Source: Chloroflexota bacterium
Lineage (GTDB): Bacteria; Chloroflexota; Anaerolineae; UBA2200
Direction of reading: 5' to 3'
Length of the DNA: 64,000 nt
Assembly (NCBI GenBank): GCA_014360755.1
Contig: JACIWX010000003.1
Span: 27,678 to 91,677 of the forward strand
In this document: positions 4,115 to 60,251 of the stretch, in pieces
Position numbering within the stretch: the stretch's first letter is position 1
How the letters are laid out: each line of letters begins with the position of its first letter
Position numbers and translations under genes: made by a program
Notes under the pieces: model-generated
Database searches by the model: none
Told to the model about the DNA's origin: nothing
The model's input: only the letters and a program-made list of their open reading frames with translations

Positions 4115-4158
4115 TCATCCGTCAGTCAAGGCAACAGTGCAGGACCTCACACCATTTT

Positions 4159-4312
4159 GAGAGTGTTGAAAATCTTGTTACCCTGAGCAAAGCGAAGGTC
4201 TCGCGTAACTTTAGCCGTATTTTTCCAAGTACTGCGAGATGCTTCACTTCCCCTTCGCTTTGCTCAGCGCGAAGGTTCAGCATGACATTGGAAGGGCTTT
4301 TTCAACACCCTC
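4159..4312. mobile_element. MITE-like element copy A, about 154 bp. Its inverted ends are GAGAGTGTTGAAAAT and ATTTTTCAACACCCTC. A direct repeat acaccatt flanks it.
   Basis: A near-identical element with indels sits at 59239-59390. Both have the same inverted ends and an internal ctcgcgtaactttagccgtattttc...gcgagatgcttcac...cagcatgacattggaagggc core, and each is flanked by a short direct repeat. Confidence 0.55.
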
Positions 4313-4646
4313 ACACCATTGTATATCGCTCCAAAAACAGAGACGGTCAAGTTTCGTAACACGTCATGCAGCGCACAATTATATCACGGCAATGCATTGT
4401 GGGCAATTGTGCAAGGGCTGCGCTTGGTCTTTTTGCCCCGCAATTGAGGCTGCAAAGTGGAGCAAGGCGGTTTCATTATTTCGCCAAAATGCGCGCTTTT
4501 GACCGAAGATGTGATATAATGGGGATAAGAAAAAGCGCGCGTGGATGTGACGTGTACCATTGATGTCACTCGCTTGCGCAATCTCTTAGTGTGCTGTGGT
4601 GAAGAAACACAGAATGAGACGCTCCTACTAGCCTGCGAGGTAAAGA

Positions 4647-7380: not shown

Positions 7381-7509
7381 TTCGCTTCCACCTCACGTCT
7401 CGATGATTTGGGCAATCGTAACCTTCCCAAGTGACCGGAAACATGCCCATTTAGTGGGCTATCTTATCATATTTATCGTTACTAGTCAAGTTTGCACTGC
7501 TAGCTAAGG

Positions 7510-8025
7510 GGGTGTAGTTCAGTTTGGGGGCAGGATATGGATAAGTGTATACGGCGGACTGTGGTCCGCCTGGAGCGGGATGGATTAGACCTGTCAGGTC
7601 TGTTTAAGATCCCTGGAGTGTGGACGGCGGCGTTTGCCATTGAGCCTGCCAGGGAATTGATTCCCTGGCGGCATCTGGGCATGGGAGCCCATGCCCAGGC
7701 GAGGTGGTCTCTTGCGTCACCCTGAGGCGAAGCCGAGGGGTCTCATGGAACTGAGGGGGAGATTCTTCGCCGCTACGCGGCTCAGAATGACAACGGGAAA
7801 GCAGGTGCTCTCACGTTTGGCGTGGACAGCGGGTGGTCCACCTGGAGCAGTCTCACGCTCAGCGTGGACCGCAGTCCACGCTGGGTATAAGATAGCCCCG
7901 TCTACTTGAGGAGCGAATCCGTTCCCCAAATCTGCTGACAGTGATTGTTCTTGTCCAGACTTGGCTGCTTTCCATCCGCCTGAGGCGGTGTAAGGCATTT
8001 CTTGCCCCAAAAGTGAACTACACCC
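7510..8025. mobile_element. 516-bp hairpin-rich non-coding element. Its ends are 16-bp inverted repeats, GGGTGTAGTTCAGTTT and AAAGTGAACTACACCC, and gctaagg flanks both sides. It is either a MITE-like insertion or a large structured RNA.
   Basis: No credible ORF lies within it. It contains perfect hairpins (ctgggcatggg-agc-cccatgcccag, gccagggaat-tga-ttccctggc, agcgtggac-cgc-agtccacgct). The terminal pairing of 12 bp plus 3 bp spans the whole element. Confidence 0.4.
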
Positions 8026-8092
8026 GTGCTAAGGCTTTCAGGGCTTGGCTAGATTTTTGCTTCGCGCCTTGTCTTGTGCATTCTTTATAAAA

Positions 8093-14062: not shown

Positions 14063-16405
14063 ATGTCTGAGCAGGAAATCTACATTCGCGATCAACTCGT
14101 TCTACAGCCTGGCATTGGCTCCGTCCGATTTGTGCGTCAGGGCAGGGCATTGCTCGAGCGCGCTACGGCGGGAGTGGTATACACTAGCGCAAAAGGGCAA
14201 AAGAAACGCCTGGCTTTGGCTGGCCATGCTGTGTCCTACGGCTTGGCGCAAGACAGTGTCAGCCTGAGCGTCGCCAACGATGAGGTACAGCTCACCTGGC
14301 AGTTGCTGCTCGGCGAGGAACTGCGTTTGAACCTTGAGGTCAAAAACATCGGGGCTCAAACAGTGCGCGTTGAGGAATTCTATGTGCTGGATGTAGATGC
14401 ACAAAAGGGTGGTTCGCTGCGTTTTACCTCCTCACCTCAAAATTGGCGCTGCTACCAGAACGGCTGGCAGTCATGGACGCCTACATTCGCCCGTCACATC
14501 GCCGATGGCTTGTGGGTGGATCCCAACACGGACGATTATCGCGTCAAGCACCAGCCCCACGCCCCACTGCCGAGCAGAAAAACCATCAGCAGCGAGTGGT
14601 TTACCGTTATCGTGCCTGCCGGGGAAGAAAAGGCTACTGCATCAAGTGCCGCAAGGGGGCAGGTGGGCGCTGCTGCGGATCCTTCTATCCTCCTAGGTTT
14701 TATCACGACTGCCGATCAACTGGCTGAACTGCGCCTTGCCCTTTCGGACAGCACTCGATTCCAAAGGCTGGTTGCCATAACGTATGCGGATGGCGTGCCA
14801 CTGGCACCTGGTGAGAAGCTGCTCTCGGAAACGCTCCTCCTTGCGCTTGGTGATGACCCCCTGGGGTTATTGGACTTGTATGCGACGCACGTGGGGGAAA
14901 CGATGCACGCACGAACAGCCGCAGAAATCCCCACCGGATGGTGTACCTGGTACTATTTCTTTGGTGAGGATACTGCCGATGACGTCCTGAACAATTTGAC
15001 CTGGATTGAGAAAAGGCAGTTGCCGCTGGATGTGATCCTCATTGACGACGGTTATGAAATGGCCATCGGTGACTGGCTGGATGTCCACAGTGCCAAGTAC
15101 CCGCAGGGCATGAAACACATGGCGGAGCAAATTGCAGCGGCAGGTCACAAGCCAGGGATCTGGACGGCGCCCTTTGCCGCTAGTTCCGCCTCCAAACTCT
15201 ATGCGGAGCATCCTGATTGGGTGCTGCGCAATAAGCAGGGAGAACCGCTCGTCGCCTGGCAGCATTGGGGGGTGGATGTCTATGGGCTGGACCTGTCATT
15301 GCCTGACGTGCAGGACTGGCTGCGCGACCTGTTTCGCGTTCTGAGCGATGATTGGGGCTTTCGCTTTTTCAAGGTTGATTTCCTGTATGCAGCAGCGCTC
15401 CCTGGAGTGCGCCATGATCGCCGTATGACCCGTGCCCAAGCCGTACGGCGCGGGCTGGAGATCATCCGGGCAGCAATTGGCGATCACTTCCTGTTGGGTT
15501 GTGGAGCGCCCCTTGGGCCTTCTATTGGCATGGTGGATGCCATGCGTATTGGCCCTGATGTCCATGTGGATTGGGAGCCATTTTGGCAGGATTTGTCGGC
15601 GCCCTCGGCGGCAAATGCCATCCTCAACTCTATCGCTCGTAGTTTCATGCACGGCAAGCTCTGGGTGAATGACCCCGATTGCTTGGTTCTCAGGCCCCGT
15701 GGCGATGACTCCAACCTGGTCCTGAATGAGATGCGTACCCTGACAACCATTGTTGGGCTGAGCGGCGGCTCCGTGCTGAGCAGCGATAACCTGCCTTCCC
15801 TCCGCCGTGGCCGGCCCAGATACCTGCAGCGCATCCTGCCTCCCTATGGCCGTAGCATGATCCCCTTGGACCTCTTCCACAACGAACGCCCGCGGCTACT
15901 GGTCCTCCCGGTGGAGACTTTATGGGGTTCCTGGGTGATTGTTGCCCTGCTCAATTGGGACGACCATTCTCGCGTTACCCAACTTGACCTGGCCCAGCTT
16001 GGCCTGCCTCAGGGCGCCTATCATGTGTACAACTACTGGCGCCAGCGCTATCTGGGCGTCGTGCAAGACCACATCGTAATTGACCCGCACCAACCGCACG
16101 AAACTGTGCTGTTGTTGCTCAAACCCGTATCCGACCAACCGCAATTGCTGAGTTCAACATTTCACATACTGCAGGGGGCGGTGGAAGTGAAAGAGGTGTA
16201 CCTAGCGCCGCACAGGCTGGTGGTCGAATTGGAAAAGCAAGGGAACCAGTTTGGTCGTCTGGTTTTCGCCGTCCCTGGCGAGCGCACGGTGTCCAAAGTG
16301 CTGGTCAACGGCCGCCCCCAGCGCCCACGCCAGATTGCGGCTGGCATCTGGCAAGCTGGATTCTTCCTACAGGATCGGGCTACGGTAGAGCTCACGCTGA
16401 GTTGA
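14063..16405 (+). CDS. Alpha-galactosidase, GH36 family (start moved to ATG 14063, after RBS ggaggg)
   Basis: Clan GH-D motifs TGWCTWYYF, ILIDDGYE and FRFFKVDF (K-x-D nucleophile region). Length is about 780 aa. Confidence 0.7.
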   Translation: MSEQEIYIRDQLVLQPGIGSVRFVRQGRALLERATAGVVYTSAKGQKKRLALAGHAVSYGLAQDSVSLSVANDEVQLTWQLLLGEELRLNLEVKNIGAQTVRVEEFYVLDVDAQKGGSLRFTSSPQNWRCYQNGWQSWTPTFARHIADGLWVDPNTDDYRVKHQPHAPLPSRKTISSEWFTVIVPAGEEKATASSAARGQVGAAADPSILLGFITTADQLAELRLALSDSTRFQRLVAITYADGVPLAPGEKLLSETLLLALGDDPLGLLDLYATHVGETMHARTAAEIPTGWCTWYYFFGEDTADDVLNNLTWIEKRQLPLDVILIDDGYEMAIGDWLDVHSAKYPQGMKHMAEQIAAAGHKPGIWTAPFAASSASKLYAEHPDWVLRNKQGEPLVAWQHWGVDVYGLDLSLPDVQDWLRDLFRVLSDDWGFRFFKVDFLYAAALPGVRHDRRMTRAQAVRRGLEIIRAAIGDHFLLGCGAPLGPSIGMVDAMRIGPDVHVDWEPFWQDLSAPSAANAILNSIARSFMHGKLWVNDPDCLVLRPRGDDSNLVLNEMRTLTTIVGLSGGSVLSSDNLPSLRRGRPRYLQRILPPYGRSMIPLDLFHNERPRLLVLPVETLWGSWVIVALLNWDDHSRVTQLDLAQLGLPQGAYHVYNYWRQRYLGVVQDHIVIDPHQPHETVLLLLKPVSDQPQLLSSTFHILQGAVEVKEVYLAPHRLVVELEKQGNQFGRLVFAVPGERTVSKVLVNGRPQRPRQIAAGIWQAGFFLQDRATVELTLS

Positions 16406-17270
16406 GCTCGTGGGTCGCAGAGAGCGCTTCTATCTGCGCCCGATACACGCCCCATAACGCCGGAGGCAACTGGGCTCCGATGGCTACCATTACCTGCGTG
16501 CTTGCCTGGTGGTCCTGTTCTTCCTTGCCTAGTTCGGGCCAGGAGCCAAGGACGAAAGGTGGGCCAAAGCGAGCCGTAAGCACACCATCTACTTCAGCCA
16601 CCCCGACGGGCAGTATTTGCCACCCATAGCCAGCCATGCGCAGCAAGAACCGTCCATTGCCCGGCGGAGGTTCAATCAAGCTGCCATCGGGGCTATCGCG
16701 TCCCTCTGGGGCGAGGCCAATCAATGGTTTACGTTCCCCTGTGGCGTTGCTGAGCAGAGACAATACCTGCCGCACCGCACATACCCCCTCCTGTGCGTAC
16801 TCGGGATGGGGGGGCATGGGAGGCATGGGGATGAAGCCATAGGTTCGGGCAAGCCGGGTGAAGAAGAGGTGCGTGGTGGGCGTTACCAGGTGATGGCGCA
16901 GCGCATCGGGATACGTCCAGCGGTTGGTCATCAACCACACAATCTCCTCAGAGGAACATCGCGCTTGGGCAATGACTGCCGTGATGAGCGCGATGCCCCA
17001 CCATACTCCATAACCCGGCTTGCAATAGTGGTTGGTAACGACAATGAAGGCGTCCTGGGGAGGGATCAAGTGCGCATTTTCTACGCAGGGCGCCGGCTGG
17101 ATGCCAGCGATCAATTGCTGGGCATCAGCGCGAAAGCTGCGTTTTTTGCCCAGAAGGACGCATGTCGCGATGGACAGCACCAGCCGAGGCGGGTAGGAAT
17201 AGTGTGGACTGGCCTCGGCGGCTACGGCACGGGATGACCAACGCGGCAATGGGATCGCTCGCCAGCTCAC
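16392..17270 (-). CDS. Acyltransferase family protein (PlsC/lysophospholipid acyltransferase-like), tentative
   Basis: VVTNH...(H-x4-D-like block) and a later APEGRDS block (PEGTR-like motif III). The call is weak. Confidence 0.4.
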   Translation of the reverse strand: MSWRAIPLPRWSSRAVAAEASPHYSYPPRLVLSIATCVLLGKKRSFRADAQQLIAGIQPAPCVENAHLIPPQDAFIVVTNHYCKPGYGVWWGIALITAVIAQARCSSEEIVWLMTNRWTYPDALRHHLVTPTTHLFFTRLARTYGFIPMPPMPPHPEYAQEGVCAVRQVLSLLSNATGERKPLIGLAPEGRDSPDGSLIEPPPGNGRFLLRMAGYGWQILPVGVAEVDGVLTARFGPPFVLGSWPELGKEEQDHQASTQVMVAIGAQLPPALWGVYRAQIEALSATHELNSA

Positions 17271-17280
17271 TGTAGTCCTT

Positions 17281-18312
17281 CTACACGCTTTTGTGTGCCA
17301 ATCCTACGCCGTCAATCGCGGCACCGCAATAAGGGCATTGGGAGTTCGGGAGGATGACGTTTTCCAGAATGTTGAAGCCAAAGCGGCGAATGAGCAATTT
17401 ATGGCAGTTGTAGCAGTAGGTGTTTTCGCCCTCGCTGCCAGGCACGTTTCCCTCATAGACATAACGCAGCCCAGCTTCCACGCCAATCTCACGCGCACGG
17501 TGTAGGGTGGATAGTGGCGTAGGAATAGCATTGCGCATCTCGTAGTCAGGGCGAAAGCGGCTGACATGCCAAGGCGTGTCCACCCCTACTTCTTCTGCGA
17601 TGAATTTCGCCAACTGGCGCAGTTCTTCTTCTGAGTCGTTCTGCCCGGGAACTACCAAGGTGGTGATCTCCACCCAGATTCCCCTCTTCTTCATCGCCTT
17701 GATGGCATCGAGCACCGGCTGCAAACGGGCACCGCAGATCTTGCGGTAAAAATCATCGCGGAAAGATTTCAAATCCACGTTCGCAGCATGGAGATGGGTT
17801 CCAAAGGCATCCAGCATCTCCTCGGTCATATAGCCATTGGTGACGTAAATGCTCTTGATGCCCCACTTTTCTGCCAGTACTGCCGTATCGTAGGCGTATT
17901 CGAAAAAGATGGTGGGTTCGGTATAGGTGTAAGCGATGCTCTTGCAGCCATAATGGCGCGCCGCAGCGGCAAGGTGATCGGGGGAAGCTTCGTGCCCGTC
18001 AATCTGGCCCCCATCGCGTACCACCTGCGAAATCTGCCAGTTCTGGCAGAAGGAGCAGCGGAAATTGCAACCCACGGTGGCAAAGGAAAACGTGGACGAC
18101 CCGGGATAAAAGTGGAAAAGCGGCTTTTTCTCCACGGGGTCAATGGCTTGAGAAATGGCCAAGCCGTACACTAGCGTATAGAGCACGCCATCCCTGTTCT
18201 CGCGTACCAGGCAGATCCCTCGTTTCCCATCCGCGATTGTGCAGCGATGAGCACATAAATGGCATTTTACCTTCTTGTCCTCTAGCCGCTCATAAAGCCG
18301 CGCTTCTCGCAT
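17281..18312 (-). CDS. AmmeMemoRadiSam system radical SAM enzyme (PFL-activase-like)
   Basis: CNFRCSFCQNW radical-SAM cysteine triad. The N-terminus (KCHLCAHRC, GICLVREN) and overall pattern match that family. The true start is probably MREARLY. Confidence 0.8.
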   Translation of the reverse strand: MREARLYERLEDKKVKCHLCAHRCTIADGKRGICLVRENRDGVLYTLVYGLAISQAIDPVEKKPLFHFYPGSSTFSFATVGCNFRCSFCQNWQISQVVRDGGQIDGHEASPDHLAAAARHYGCKSIAYTYTEPTIFFEYAYDTAVLAEKWGIKSIYVTNGYMTEEMLDAFGTHLHAANVDLKSFRDDFYRKICGARLQPVLDAIKAMKKRGIWVEITTLVVPGQNDSEEELRQLAKFIAEEVGVDTPWHVSRFRPDYEMRNAIPTPLSTLHRAREIGVEAGLRYVYEGNVPGSEGENTYCYNCHKLLIRRFGFNILENVILPNSQCPYCGAAIDGVGLAHKSV

Positions 18313-18839
18313 TATGACACCTCCTTTAAGCCTAGCGGATACCTCCGCGCCAGGTCCTGGTAGATGCTCTTGAAATTGGACCACTCTGCTTTATATTCTT
18401 CACTGACCTGTTTGTCCAACAACCTGGCTGGCACGCCCACGGCAATACAGCCATCCGGAACCTCCTGGCCCTGCCGGACGACTGCTCCTTCGCCGACCAC
18501 TGCCCATTCTCCGACCTGAGCCCAGTCGCTGACCACGGATCCCATACCAATTACCGCATGGTCTTTGATGGTCGCGTTGTGTATGACACAGCCATGGCCG
18601 ATAGTCACGTTCCTGCCGATGCGCGTAATCTCACCGGGGCGGGCGTGGATGACGCAATTATCCTCGATACTCGTGCCATCCCCGATGATAATCGTACCAT
18701 AGTCGCCACGCAGACGTGCGCCAGGTCCAATCCAACAATTAGCGCCAATGGTTACCGCACCGATGACATCAGCGGAAGGATGGATATAGGTGTCCTGCCC
18801 TAGTTCTGGTTTGCGTCCCTCGAATTCGTAGATGGCCAT
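18312..18839 (-). CDS. Gamma carbonic anhydrase family protein (hexapeptide-repeat, PaaY/CaiE-like)
   Basis: Left-handed beta-helix hexapeptide repeats with His ligands (IHPSADVIG..., CVIHARPG, IGHGCVIH). Confidence 0.8.
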   Translation of the reverse strand: MAIYEFEGRKPELGQDTYIHPSADVIGAVTIGANCWIGPGARLRGDYGTIIIGDGTSIEDNCVIHARPGEITRIGRNVTIGHGCVIHNATIKDHAVIGMGSVVSDWAQVGEWAVVGEGAVVRQGQEVPDGCIAVGVPARLLDKQVSEEYKAEWSNFKSIYQDLARRYPLGLKEVS

Positions 18840-19165
18840 TGCTCAATGCTCCTCTCGATGAATCCAATCTTTCGCCCCATTTTACTGCACGGCGGTGGGG
18901 GAAGCAAAAGGAGTGCGGAAGTATTGCTCCATGGTATTACAGAGGCTATTCCAAGTAGATTTAAAGGGAGATGTTGGGGGAAAGAGGGGAAGATCGAAGT
19001 TAGTGCCGAGGTCTGCTATTCATAGTCCGCCGAGTTACATGCATCCCAGAACCTTGGCGAATCGGCCTCTTGCACCTATATTGCACGTGCTTGCTGGTAC
19101 TTGCCTATCTTCGTGGGATAGTGCTCAGCGACAGCGCAGATAGCGTACGCAAGTCGGCTCAGGTT

Positions 19166-19410
19166 TGTCTTCTTGGCCGATACTGTATCACCTCCGCCAG
19201 GTGATGCGTCTTGATCTCCGCCGCACCCTCCAGGACTGCCCTGAGCCTGTCGAAGGGTCAGCGATAGTGCGCGCCAGCTTGAGGGCTTGTCCTGAGCAAA
19301 GCGAAGGGATGCGGTGAAAGGCCCGTGCGCTCATGCCCAGTTGCGTCATGACAGCGCGCAGCAAACTCTTGCCGGAGTCATCCAAGCGGCAGTATTCGCG
19401 TACTTCGGGT
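19166..19410 (-). pseudogene. Degenerate duplicate of the comM 3' end (about 245 bp), with two small repeat-unit insertions
   Basis: It aligns base for base to 19963-20175 (...cttcttggccgatactg...caggtgatgcgtcttgatctccgc...atgcggtgaaaggc...ctcatgcccagttgcgtcatg...cttgccggagtc...caagcggcagta.tcgcgtac). The fragment translates to [25 protein letters not shown]. Confidence 0.65.
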
Positions 19411-19411
19411 A

Positions 19412-19642
19412 TTACTCTTCCAACAGCTCCATCAATTCCTCTAGTGACAGCTCTGCATCACGTAAAATCTTGCGCAGCAAGCCGCGCCCAATATCCTGAC
19501 CTATATGAACAGGTACTGTCACTACTCGACCATCTGCGTGTTTGCGTCGAGCGTGGCTTCCCCGCTGCCGAGCAACTTTGAACCCAACTTTCTCCAGGAC
19601 TCGGAGCACCTGTCCTGCCTTCAGTACCGGAAGACGGGGCAT
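19412..19642 (-). CDS. hicA: Type II toxin HicA (YcfA family)
   Basis: KAGQVLRVLEKVGFKVARQRGSHARRKHADGRVVTVPVH matches the HicA signature (GSHxxxxHxDGRxxTVPxH). Confidence 0.8.
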   Translation of the reverse strand: MPRLPVLKAGQVLRVLEKVGFKVARQRGSHARRKHADGRVVTVPVHIGQDIGRGLLRKILRDAELSLEELMELLEE

Positions 19643-19878
19643 CAAATCAGCACCTTTTGCAGGCCAATGAACTCTGGCCACCCTTCGGTTTGGGGTTGTT
19701 CTTCCAGACACAGTTCGATCACTTCGCGGATGTTCTGCAACAATTCATCTATCGTTCGTCCTTGCGCATAACATCCGCGCAACTGGGGAACCTCTCCGAT
19801 AAAGAAACCATCCTCATCCTGTTCAATTAGGACATAAAACTCTCGTTTCATCAGGCTATCCTCCACTCTGCCAACCAT
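19642..19878 (-). CDS. hicB: Type II antitoxin HicB (UPF0150 family)
   Basis: YVLIEQDEDGFFIGEVPQLRGCYAQGRTIDELLQNIREVIELCLE has the HicB/UPF0150 fold pattern. Its stop overlaps the hicA start. Confidence 0.75.
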   Translation of the reverse strand: MVGRVEDSLMKREFYVLIEQDEDGFFIGEVPQLRGCYAQGRTIDELLQNIREVIELCLEEQPQTEGWPEFIGLQKVLI

Positions 19879-19957: not shown

Positions 19958-21502
19958 TCACATCTGCCTTCTTGGCCGATACTGGATTGCCTCTGCCAGG
20001 TGATGCGTCTTGATCTCCGCTGCACCCTCCAAATCGGCGATGGTGCGCGCCAGTTTGAGGATGCGGTGAAAGGCGCGGGCGCTCATGCCCAGTTGCGTCA
20101 TGGCGGCGCGCAGCAGGCTCTTGCCGGAGTCGTCCAAGCGGCAGTACTCGCGTACCTCCGCTGGGCCCATGTCGGCGTTGCAGAGGAGTGGCAAGTTGCC
20201 CTTGACTCCGCCCAGCCGACCGGCAAAGCGTTGGCGTTGGATTTCCCGCGCTTGCTCGATGCGGGCGCGGATAGTAGCGCTCGGTTCGCCCAGGCGGTCA
20301 TCGGTCAGTTTCTCGTACTCCACGCGTGGCACTTCGACGTGGATGTCAATGCGGTCCAAGAGCGGGCCAGAAATGCGCTTGCGGTAGCGGGTGATCATGC
20401 TTGGCGAGCAGGTGCACTCTTTGACCGGGTCACCGAAGTAGCCGCACGGACAGGGGTTCATCGCCGCCACCAGCATAAAGTTGGCTGGGAAGGTCAGCGT
20501 GGTTGTGGCGCGGCTGATGGTAACGATCTTGTCCTCCAACGGCTGGCGTAGCACCTCCAGCACGTGCTGGCTGAACTCGGGTAGCTCATCTAGGAAAAGC
20601 ACCCCGCGATGTGCTAATGAGATCTCACCTGGACGTGGCCAATGACCACCACCAACCAACCCGGCATGGCTGATGGTATGATGGGGTGCGCGGAAAGGAC
20701 GCTCGGTAATCAGCGGCTGGTCAGCGGGTAAAAGCCCGCTTACAGAATAAATCTTGGTGATTTCCAGTGCTTCTTCTACGGTTAGTTTAGGTAGAATAGA
20801 GGGCAAAGCCCGTGCCAGCAGTGTCTTGCCTGCGCCTGGGGGTCCAGTCATCAGCACGCAGTGGGCACCGGCAGCCGCTACTTCTAAGGCGCGCTTGACA
20901 TGCTCCTGGCCCTTGATGTCGCGAAAGTCAGTGCCATAGCGCGGCTGATCCAACAGGTCATAATCGAATGCAGAATGATAAGGCGGTATAGGGTGCAAGC
21001 CCTGCAGGTGCCCTACTAGCTCTGCCAAGTTGGACACTGGGATGATCTCTATGCCAGGCACCAGTGCAGCCTCTGGAGCATCCTCAGCCGGCACAAATGC
21101 CCTTTTGTAGCCCTGCGCCTGCGCTATGCTGATCATAGGCAATACGCCAGTGGTATGGCGCACGTTGCCGTCCAGCGAAAGTTCGCCAAGGAAAATGCTT
21201 GACTCTAAATCAGGCCAAATTTGCCCGGAGGCAGCAATGATGCCCACCGCGATAGGGAGGTCATAAGCGGGACCTTCTTTGCGCAAATCCGCCGGAGCCA
21301 GGTTCACCGTAATGCGCTGGCCAGGGAACCTACAGCCCGAGTTCTTAATCGCTGCGCGGACGCGCTCACGGGATTCCTGCACGGCAGTATCAGGCAAACC
21401 AACGATAATGAAACTGCTGAGGCCATGTGAGATGTCCACTTCCACTTGGATGGCTGCACCGTCCAGACCGACCACAGCGAAACTGGTTACTTTGGCAAGC
21501 AT
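19958..21502 (-). CDS. comM: YifB/ComM family Mg-chelatase-like AAA+ ATPase
   Basis: N-terminal Lon-protease-like domain, AAA+ Walker A GPPGAGKT and a C-terminal ChlI-C domain. Length is 514 aa. Confidence 0.9.
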
Positions 21503-49877: not shown

Positions 49878-49948
49878 CTGGGGCGGGAGGGTTCGAACCT
49901 CCGTTAACGGATCCAAAGTCCGCTGTGCTACCATTGCACCACGCCCCA
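49878..49948 (-). tRNA. tRNA-Gln (anticodon UUG)
   Basis: The reverse complement folds as a cloverleaf: acceptor TGGGGCG/CGCCCCA (U1-A72, typical of tRNA-Gln), D stem GTGC/GCAC, anticodon stem GCGGA/TCCGT with loop CTTTGGA, and T arm GGAGG-TTCGAAC-CCTCC. CCA is not encoded. Confidence 0.85.
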
Positions 49949-58245: not shown

Positions 58246-59154
58246 TTATCCTCCTTCCGACCCAACTGTGTACCACAGCAGCCGGTTGTCCTTCACTTGG
58301 TATGCGATCTGTCCCGTGTTGCGCAGATGGCTCAGATAGGCATGAAGTGTAGGGTAGAAAAGATAGTATTCTCGGATATTGCGCATCTCGATCTTGTAGT
58401 GCTCGCAGACGGCACTTAGAAGGTTATTGGCTTCAGCGGGGGCTTGAGCAAGATAGCGCCAGATAAAATGCAGGACATCCATTATCTGCGCGATGTTGCG
58501 TTCGATTAGTTCGGTGATGTCACGTTCCAATGAGCCATGCCCTAACACGTAATATGAACAGAAGTAATTACGCAGTTTTTGCAGGCTTTCGAGGCGCTTG
58601 GTAATGCTGTACGCATAGGAAATGGGTGCATTTGCCAATTCCTCTTCTCCAGCCAGGATATCGCCAGTGAAGAAAACATCGTTCACAATATACCCAGTAT
58701 GACTGCCAGTATGGCCAGGCAAGGGTACTGCTTGAACCGTTACTCCAGCGATCTGGACCTCACCTTCGGTGACAATCACATCTGTCGCGCATGGTTGTGG
58801 AGCAAAGCGAGGCGTGCTTAATTCGTTGATGGGTTCTGCACCGCCGAATACGCACATCGAACCCCATGCGGGATGCTGTAACACGATCGAGTCATACAAC
58901 GGGGCATAAACTTTGGCACCTGTATGCTCCACCAGATAGGCATTACCGCCGGTATGATCACCATGGCCATGGGTATTAAAGATAGCAGCTAGCTTGAGGC
59001 CTCGTTCTTCGAGTATTTGCAACAGTTGTCGGCCAGAACGTTGCCCAACGCCTGTGTCAATCAGAAGTGCCTGGTTCCCTTCGCCTACAATAAGGCCGAT
59101 GTTGCTCGCGCCAGGGAGATAATAGACGTTGTGCAGTACATGTTGCAAAGCCAA
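58246..59154 (-). CDS. MBL-fold metallo-hydrolase
   Basis: HGHGDHTGG (HxHxDH) motif with later His and Asp ligands. Its stop abuts the ssnA start. Confidence 0.8.
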   Translation of the reverse strand: MALQHVLHNVYYLPGASNIGLIVGEGNQALLIDTGVGQRSGRQLLQILEERGLKLAAIFNTHGHGDHTGGNAYLVEHTGAKVYAPLYDSIVLQHPAWGSMCVFGGAEPINELSTPRFAPQPCATDVIVTEGEVQIAGVTVQAVPLPGHTGSHTGYIVNDVFFTGDILAGEEELANAPISYAYSITKRLESLQKLRNYFCSYYVLGHGSLERDITELIERNIAQIMDVLHFIWRYLAQAPAEANNLLSAVCEHYKIEMRNIREYYLFYPTLHAYLSHLRNTGQIAYQVKDNRLLWYTVGSEGG

Positions 59155-59238
59155 GGCTTATCCCCTTTGAATTCCTTTTGGCAAGATTATACACGAGTTT
59201 ATGGCAACAATCCAAAAGGAGTTCTGGTTTCTACGCAA

Positions 59239-59390
59239 GAGAGTGTTGAAAATCTTGTCACCCTGAGCAAGCGAAGAGCCTGCCCTGAGTACAACGAAGG
59301 GGTCTCGCGTAACTTTAGCCGTATTTTCAAGTACCGCGAGATGCTTCACTCCGTTCAGCATGACATTGGAAGGGCTTTTTCAACACTCTC
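59239..59390. mobile_element. MITE-like element copy B, about 152 bp. Its inverted ends are GAGAGTGTTGAAAA and TTTTCAACACTCTC. A direct repeat cgcaag flanks it.
   Basis: Homologous to 4159-4312 over its full length, with indels in the CCTGAGC...CGAAGG sub-repeat region. Confidence 0.55.
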
Positions 59391-59462
59391 CGCAAGAGCG
59401 CTTTGCGTTTTCTCTCGAAGGGTGATATACTGGTCTATACTGAACGCAGGAGAAACAATCCC

Positions 59463-60251
59463 GTGCACGAGAGGAGCATTCAGCCAGTCTATCTATCGCC
59501 ACATCTCGATGATGCGGTTCTTTCCTGCGGTGGCTTGATTCATCAGCAGAAACAACAGGGCTTTCAGCCGTTTGTTATCACTTGCTTCGCTGGTGTGCCG
59601 GATTACCAGCTGCTTTCCCCATTTGCGACTATGCAGCATCAGCGTTGGGGAGAAACATTGCATCCCACCGAGCACCGACGCAAGGAAGATGTCCTGGCTA
59701 TGGCGTGCCTCGGTGCAGCCTATGAACACTGGGATTATCTGGATTGCATTTATCGTCGCCATCCGGAGAGCGGTGAGTTTCTTTACACAACGGAAGAAGC
59801 CTTATTCAGTGCTGTGGCAAGTGTGGAACATTATCTGGTTGACGAGCTGGCTGCGCGTCTGAAAGGGGCTTTTTCGGCTCATAATGCGCTCATCTATGCG
59901 CCTCTCGCCGTCGGGCAGCACGTAGACCACCAGCTTGTGTCCCAGGCTGCGCTTAGGTTGCGCGATGACGGGTTCTTTATATGGTTCTATGAGGACTATC
60001 CGTACGCTGAAGATGCCCAAAAGATCGCCAATGCTTTACAATGTTGGGCTTCTCCGCCCAAGCCTACCGTCTATCCGCTGCGTGAAGAAGATATGGCTGC
60101 CAAAATCGCTGCTGTTCGCTGCTATGCTTCACAACTTGCTATACTATTTGGCGACGAAGCATCTGTTCCAGCAAAGATCAAAGCCTATGCATTTGCTGTA
60201 GGAAGTGGTCAGGGCTATGGCGAACGCTACTGGAAGGAAGGGGTGCGGTGA
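59463..60251 (+). CDS. PIG-L/LmbE family N-acetylglucosaminyl deacetylase
   Basis: VYLSPHLDDAVLSCGG matches the PIG-L signature. The GTG start at 59463 follows RBS aggag; the longer TTG-start ORF would begin inside the MITE. Confidence 0.75.
   Translation: MHERSIQPVYLSPHLDDAVLSCGGLIHQQKQQGFQPFVITCFAGVPDYQLLSPFATMQHQRWGETLHPTEHRRKEDVLAMACLGAAYEHWDYLDCIYRRHPESGEFLYTTEEALFSAVASVEHYLVDELAARLKGAFSAHNALIYAPLAVGQHVDHQLVSQAALRLRDDGFFIWFYEDYPYAEDAQKIANALQCWASPPKPTVYPLREEDMAAKIAAVRCYASQLAILFGDEASVPAKIKAYAFAVGSGQGYGERYWKEGVR

Follow-up and report, generated by a model that had tools for sequence, protein, structure and literature searches.

The question raised by this locus is whether two short and closely similar intergenic segments, found about 55 kb apart in DNA of an uncultured member of the Anaerolineae (Chloroflexota), are copies of a mobile element or regulatory sites of the genes next to which they lie. 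The whole stretch of DNA that was analyzed, here called the window, comprises 64,000 nucleotides. The original prediction, made from this DNA, had recognized in it two copies of a non-autonomous DNA transposon (MITE) family with terminal inverted repeats (TIRs), a shared core, and flanking direct repeats. The two copies, their termini, and the modules in which they differ are located as follows:

4159..4312, + strand: candidate MITE copy A, 154 bp, the right-arm-module variant, inside the obg 5' leader
59239..59390, + strand: candidate MITE copy B, 152 bp, the left-arm-module variant, between the divergent MBL-hydrolase and PIG-L genes
4159..4172, + strand: left TIR of copy A, GAGAGTGTTGAAAA, from the TIR pattern search
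4299..4312, − strand: right TIR of copy A, GAGGGTGTTGAAAA as read on the minus strand, 13/14 identical to the left TIR
59239..59252, + strand: left TIR of copy B, from the TIR pattern search
59377..59390, − strand: right TIR of copy B, 14/14 identical
4251..4274, + strand: 24-nt hairpin half-module present in copy A only (neither in copy B nor in the 131-nt master copy), pairing with 4181-4199
59277..59300, + strand: 24-nt hairpin half-module AGCCTGCCCTGAGTACAACGAAGG, present in copy B and in the 155-nt variants, neither in copy A nor in the 131-nt master copy

When up to two mismatches were allowed, the TIR (GAGAGTGTTGAAAA / TTTTCAACACYCTC) was found at four sites in the 64 kb, all of which are ends of copies A and B, against 0.46 sites expected, and a count of four was reached by no shuffle of the window. 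The predicted coordinates and the 14-bp TIRs were thus confirmed, with no occurrence elsewhere in the window. The proposed shared core is likewise borne out by two segments of 23-24 nt, each of which occurs exactly twice in the window against zero expected occurrences. An nhmmer profile built from 20 members of the family recovered no copies in the window other than these two, apart from a weak match at 7716-7798. Copies A and B are near-identical except for two 24-nt insertions/deletions, and their flanks are unrelated beyond the element. Outside the window, copy A is 93% identical to L070:4815-4969 and copy B 95% identical to L036:5039-5193. On either strand, each copy is predicted to fold into one long, imperfect hairpin; the folding energies lie between -53 and -60 kcal/mol, and the z-scores relative to shuffled sequence between -4.2 and -5.7. 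Neither copy has coding capacity, the open reading frames being spurious read-through frames that differ between the copies. Two such spurious frames, at 59017-59538 (+ strand, 173 aa) and 4239-4502 (+ strand, 87 aa), cross or begin within the elements, and automated annotation will probably list peptides such as ESVENLVTLS... and MLH..VQHDIGRAFST as "hypothetical proteins".

A comparison that included 47 additional complete copies defined the basic unit as an imperfect palindrome of 131 nt. From one end to the other, it is made up of a 14-bp TIR, the left arm TCTTGTCACCCTGAGCGAAGCGAAGGGTCTCGCG, a loop of approximately 25 nt, the right arm CGCGAGATGCTTCACTTCGTTCAGCATGACATTGGAAGGGC, and the other TIR. 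The arms of this unit carry GTCACCCTGAGCGAAGCGAAGGGTCTCGCG and CGCGAGATGCTTCACTTCGTTCAGCATGAC, and its ends are GAGAGTGTTGAAAA on the left and the complement of GAGGGTGTTGAAAA on the right. The TIRs are kept in 49/49 complete copies, and the outer termini are GAG...CTC, with no GTAG head. The element has a polarity: most left ends are GAGAGTG, and nearly all right ends are the complement of GAGGGTG. Family members range from 107 to 204 bp, within the limit of approximately 600 bp usual for MITEs, and fall into discrete classes of 107-108, 128-132 (the commonest, with 29 copies), 152-155, and 179-204 nt, which result from the gain or loss of half-hairpin modules of approximately 24 nt, of the CCCTGAG-N5-CGAAGG type, in either arm.

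The distribution of the family was determined by searching for a degenerate pattern, matching both element ends, in 185,579 species-representative genomes, and by scanning metagenomes. In the genome scan, the Anaerolineae MAG KM4338-63 was found to contain ten complete copies and six ends at contig edges, and four other Anaerolineae MAGs contain elements with the same termini and unrelated interiors. The metagenome scan yielded 61 loci, 50 of them from the single sample Ga0315298, which holds a lineage approximately 95% identical in DNA to the window, and in this metagenome the family is represented by 33 complete copies and by 25 ends at contig edges. Six of the 131-nt copies in Ga0315298 are 100% identical to each other, and some identical copies occupy different loci. 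The identity of these six copies points to a recent amplification of the family. For the genome of the window itself, the countable copies are the two in the window and one just outside it. The Obg protein of the window is identical to MBC7232698.1, recorded on a contig of 415 kb. Short-read contigs of the same strain end 77 nt upstream of obg, i.e., within copy A. One such contig has an element end at its other extremity as well, from which a third copy can be placed approximately 1.4 kb beyond the start of the window. The search for further copies that had been suggested with the original prediction was thus successful, with this third copy and dozens of others in sister lineages.

Some of the recovered loci depart from the common form. 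Those designated L003, L008, L010, L014, and L022 (MAGs H76_765 and Phototrophicaceae), together with L015 and L021, have one exact GAGGGTGTTGAAAAAG terminus and a close variant at the other end, and their interior is wholly different, G+C-rich, and made up of GGGAGAGGG-type hairpins. The elements of H76_765 and Phototrophicaceae are nested between inverted GTAGGGGCACGCCAT arms; either the TIR is longer there or these elements target a REP-like palindrome. Besides, two 155-nt copies, L036:5039-5193 and L044:8676-8830, have identical right flanks and unrelated left flanks, which could be due to recombination of one copy with another, to strain variation, or to a chimeric assembly. At L007:2213-2430 in KM4338-63, a copy without a right TIR is preceded at a distance of 77 nt by a solo left end; this insertion is rearranged or truncated.

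The most direct evidence for insertion was obtained from relatives of the window, recovered by means of the neighboring proteins, with a DNA identity of 95.2-95.4%. Their DNA alignments to the window break at 4157-4308 and 59242-59386. Comparison with these empty sites defined the following target-site duplications, none of which is assigned to a strand:

4149..4158: left target-site duplication of copy A, ACACCATTTT, present as a single copy in the empty site ...CCGCACACCATTGCGC... of L220-L224
4313..4322: right target-site duplication of copy A, ACACCATTGT, from the empty-site comparison
59234..59238: left target-site duplication of copy B, CGCAA, from the empty-site comparison
59391..59395: right target-site duplication of copy B, CGCAA, from the empty-site comparison

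Locus A is empty in five contigs (L220-L224), which read ...CCGCACACCATTGCGCATCG and have the flanking repeat only once, as ACACCATTG(T), whereas the window has ACACCATTTT, the 154-bp element, and ACACCATTGT. The duplication at copy A thus comprises 10 bp, with 9/10 positions matching between the two sides. Locus B is empty in two contigs (L214 and L215), which read GGTTTCTA-CGCAA-GAGCGCTTTGC with CGCAA once, whereas in the window the 152-bp element is enclosed by CGCAA on both sides. The flanking direct repeats of the original prediction are therefore real, and their extents were refined by the empty sites. In more distant relatives, in which Obg is 82-87% or the MBL hydrolase 81-85% identical, both loci are likewise without the element. 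Because the loci of the relatives with approximately 95% identity are empty, both window copies were inserted after the split from these relatives. The comparison of orthologous loci, also suggested with the original prediction, thus showed two empty sites with a single target copy each. The finding that would have spoken for a conserved motif, namely that there are no further copies and that relatives share the sequence at both loci, was not made, and the assignment to a MITE family is supported by the further copies, the duplications, and the empty sites. Two other comparisons gave no usable empty site: the synteny of L027 with positions 14203-18926 of the window stops short of the element, and the intergenic region of L080/L025 was too divergent.

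The choice of target sites was examined across the family. In 35/43 oriented copies, a direct repeat with at most one mismatch abuts both ends. The lengths of these 35 duplications are mostly 6-8 bp (5 bp in two copies, 6 bp in 14, 7 bp in eight, 8 bp in eight, and 9, 10, and 13 bp in one copy each), and the duplications vary in sequence as well as in length, with no fixed flanking oligonucleotide. This spread of lengths is unusually wide for one transposase. A C directly 5' of the duplication, and a G directly 3' of it, are seen in about half of the sites, against 25% expected. In addition, the terminal tetranucleotide of the element itself adjoins the duplication in the native target in 8/35 insertions, against approximately 0.27 expected, as CCTC on the 5' side or as GAGA, GAGG, or GGGA on the 3' side. 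Such a preference for end-like targets is not predicted by a simple staggered-cut model. We also considered a duplication of fixed length in which the target supplies the terminal G/C or CCTC, and rejected it because no single length fits several of the copies, e.g., L063 and L049 (6 bp each) and L012 (9 bp). In the window, end-like target sequences are present as CCTC at 4145-4148 and as GAG at 59396-59398.

A crude ORF call placed every copy between genes; three apparent exceptions proved to be spurious read-through frames. The flanking genes are arranged divergently in ten cases, convergently in eight, and in tandem in 16, showing no arrangement bias. The genes checked next to the copies are of ordinary cellular types and unrelated to one another, and Pfam identified no transposase among them. 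They encode fumarate hydratase, ArgRS, a HAD hydrolase, a response-regulator/ABC-ATPase ORF, and a TrkA-N/RyR-domain protein, besides obg, cinA, PIG-L, and the MBL hydrolase.

At the obg locus, the position of copy A relative to the gene is given by the conserved promoter:

4378..4406, − strand: conserved obg promoter, TTGCCC, 17-nt spacer, TG-n-TATAAT, from the promoter scan (10/12 match, extended -10)

This promoter is kept in the relatives L090-L093 and L220-L224, where it lies approximately 85-115 nt upstream of the obg ATG. In the window it is 266 nt from the ATG, with copy A in between, in the 5' leader of obg and 47 nt upstream of the start codon. The copy had been predicted to lie between obg and the cinA promoter; it is instead situated between the obg promoter (4406..4378) and the obg start codon. 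Since copy A is downstream of the promoter, obg transcripts must read through the element. The obg mRNA would then carry a leader hairpin predicted at approximately -60 kcal/mol, which could plausibly act as an RNase III substrate or as a determinant of transcript stability.

A distance of 12 nt separates the end of copy B from the -35 box of a putative PIG-L promoter (TTGCGT, 17-nt spacer, TATACT), which was read by eye and was not reported by the promoter scan; its -10 block GGTGATATACTGGTC is kept in KM4338-63. On its other side, the copy lies approximately 30 nt beyond the region where, as read by eye, the divergent MBL promoter should lie. The start of the longest PIG-L ORF had been expected to fall inside copy B. 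This ORF begins at 59403, 13 nt past the element, and the start codon is likely the GTG at 59463, which gives a protein of 262 aa with a PIG-L domain and the same length as the KM4338-63 orthologue. Neither of these starts falls within copy B. The original prediction also considered that such elements can supply promoters or terminators to neighboring genes, a suggestion not supported here, as the promoter and terminator scans detected no promoter or intrinsic terminator within either copy.

The window contains other repeats and features. A second, unrelated element with TIRs, approximately 520 bp long, is present at 7508-8027; it has inverted ends of 30 nt, GGGTGTAGTTCAGTTTGGGGGCAGGATATG, is flanked by GCTAAGG repeats, and is missing in the approximately 95%-identical relatives L220, L221, and L223, where the empty site reads CACTGCAAAGGCTTT. 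Its interior includes a GTCACCCTGAG...GAATGACA hairpin of the same type as in the MITE core, and its TIR also adjoins several MITE copies in Ga0315298. At 19156-19406, the 3' end of a Mg-chelatase/ComM-like gene (19958-21502) is duplicated in part, with 87-91% identity. The sequence of this duplicate, which adjoins a HicA toxin gene (19412-19711, minus strand), is broken by solo hairpin half-modules at two places, 19240-19256 and 19291-19307, and the arrangement looks like an insertion scar. A search of the whole window against Rfam 15 at the gathering threshold returned only a tRNA gene, at 49878-49948 on the minus strand, and at E ≤ 10 the regions around both copies gave only noise.

Based on the termini, the duplications, the copy number, and the empty sites, we conclude that copies A and B very probably represent a MITE specific to a group of uncultured Anaerolineae. 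The family is real and recently active and has apparently not been described before, and elements of this kind are well known. We propose that a DDE-type transposase, whose gene would lie elsewhere in the genome, would mobilize the element in trans by binding the TIRs and making staggered cuts in the target, and that the insertions are most likely near-neutral passengers. An autonomous partner with matching TIRs, for which the original prediction had suggested a search, was not found in approximately 0.9 Mb of recovered loci: TIR pairs 0.6-4 kb apart, sought with relaxed matching, proved to be only adjacent MITEs or chance matches, none of them enclosing an ORF, and all-against-all clustering of ORFs across the loci revealed no multi-copy transposase-like protein. 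A scan of viral contigs with the 16-nt TIR returned 120 matches, all of them single and chance-like, and no plasmid was matched by the master copy in a BLAST search. Full-text literature searches retrieved no description of MITEs in Anaerolineae or Chloroflexi, nor the TIR and module sequences.

Two less ordinary variants of this explanation can be considered: a transposase with an unusual mode of integration, and half-modules that spread on their own as a unit which different MITE families have in common. An unusual integration, by capture of end-like targets or guided by microhomology, would fit the 5-10 bp range of the duplications and the 8/35 end-like targets, and the half-modules may spread independently, given their gain and loss within the arms and their presence in the element at 7508-8027 and as solo units at 19240-19307. 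We regard these variants as rather improbable. The single-strand alternative considers the copies as REP/REPIN-type or IS200/IS605-derived palindromes that are moved as single-stranded DNA by an HUH (Y1) enzyme, either RAYT or TnpA. The organization of the whole element as a long hairpin made of smaller hairpin modules would agree with such an origin, as would the nesting of the related elements of other Anaerolineae MAGs in GTAGGGGC... palindromes that resemble REP heads. To our knowledge, however, REPINs and IS200/IS605 derivatives have neither target-site duplications nor true TIRs, whereas here duplications directly abut the 14-bp TIRs in 35/43 copies, both empty sites show a simple target duplication, and the termini are without a GTAG head, so that we consider this origin very unlikely.

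The two remaining explanations do not involve transposition. If the repeats were paralogous regulatory sites, i.e., copies of a structured cis-regulatory RNA or of a small RNA gene, the location of both window copies on the + strand and upstream of + strand genes would be accounted for, as would folds far more stable than those of shuffled sequence and the transcription of copy A within the obg leader. Such a function is effectively refuted by the empty orthologous loci of relatives with approximately 95% identity, and it is at odds with the presence of target-site duplications. The reading as an RNA gene was also rejected because Rfam gave nothing meaningful up to E ≤ 10, covariation is absent (the RNAalifold covariation term is -0.08, with a compensatory change in 1/46 pairs), and there is no bias in orientation or arrangement relative to neighboring genes that are themselves unrelated; we consider it extremely unlikely. 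A segmental duplication of an intergenic segment, or relics of recombination, could be suspected from the presence of only two copies within the window, and the shared right flank of L036 and L044 indicates that recombination or assembly chimerism does occur. On the other hand, the sequences on either side of A and B show no relationship, dozens of dispersed copies have differing target-site duplications, and identical copies are found at different loci. The precise empty sites with a single target copy each refute this explanation, which we regard as having practically no chance of being correct. Overall, transposition of a MITE is the explanation that we retain.

A family that separates lineages approximately 95% identical to each other has been recently active and is a useful strain marker. 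As the copies break short-read assemblies, they also offer an explanation for fragmented MAGs of the Anaerolineae, and the spurious ORFs, e.g., the 173-aa frame across copy B, can mislead the calling of start codons. The presence of copy A in the leader of obg, the gene of an essential GTPase, provides a natural test of the effect of a hairpin of approximately 150 nt on an essential transcript. The general understanding of MITEs is unchanged by the Anaerolineae family.

Known bacterial MITEs include the Correia elements of Neisseria, RUP of Streptococcus pneumoniae, and Nezha of cyanobacteria. Judged by their descriptions, the Anaerolineae family resembles these in its length of 100-200 bp, its non-coding nature, its TIRs and target-site duplications, and its multiple intergenic copies, often near gene starts, as well as in forming a long hairpin when transcribed and in being polymorphic between close strains. 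By the same descriptions, it differs from Correia, RUP, and Nezha in that its TIR GAGRGTGTTGAAAA and its interior match nothing retrievable, and in its host, an uncultured member of the Anaerolineae. MITEs derived from IS630 or IS5, such as Correia and RUP, typically have a TA or TNA target-site duplication. Unlike these IS630/Tc1- or IS5/PIF-type MITEs, the Anaerolineae element duplicates a variable 5-10 bp with no fixed TA or TNA, and we take a duplication of 6-8 bp to exclude IS630 (TA) and most IS5 (TNA) sources.

With REP/REPIN sequences, the family shares its hairpin-based structure and the occurrence of short palindromic units elsewhere in the genome, but it has duplications of 5-10 bp and GAG...CTC termini, whereas REPINs, which are mobilized by RAYT transposases and go together with a RAYT gene, carry a conserved GTAG-type head. 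PATEs, which derive from IS200/IS605, have subterminal hairpins, lack TIRs and a duplication, and insert 3' of a fixed tetra- or pentanucleotide; the Anaerolineae element differs from them by its true TIRs and duplications and by having no fixed flanking oligonucleotide. ERIC/IRU and BOX, known from enterobacteria and pneumococci, are modular palindromic repeats, and the Anaerolineae family is similar to them in being an imperfect palindrome of approximately 130 bp with discrete size classes generated by short internal modules (here 131, 155, and approximately 200 nt). We know of no clear combination of TIRs with a duplication in ERIC or BOX, nor of evidence for their recent transposition, whereas the Anaerolineae family is distinguished by identical copies, clean duplications, and empty sites.
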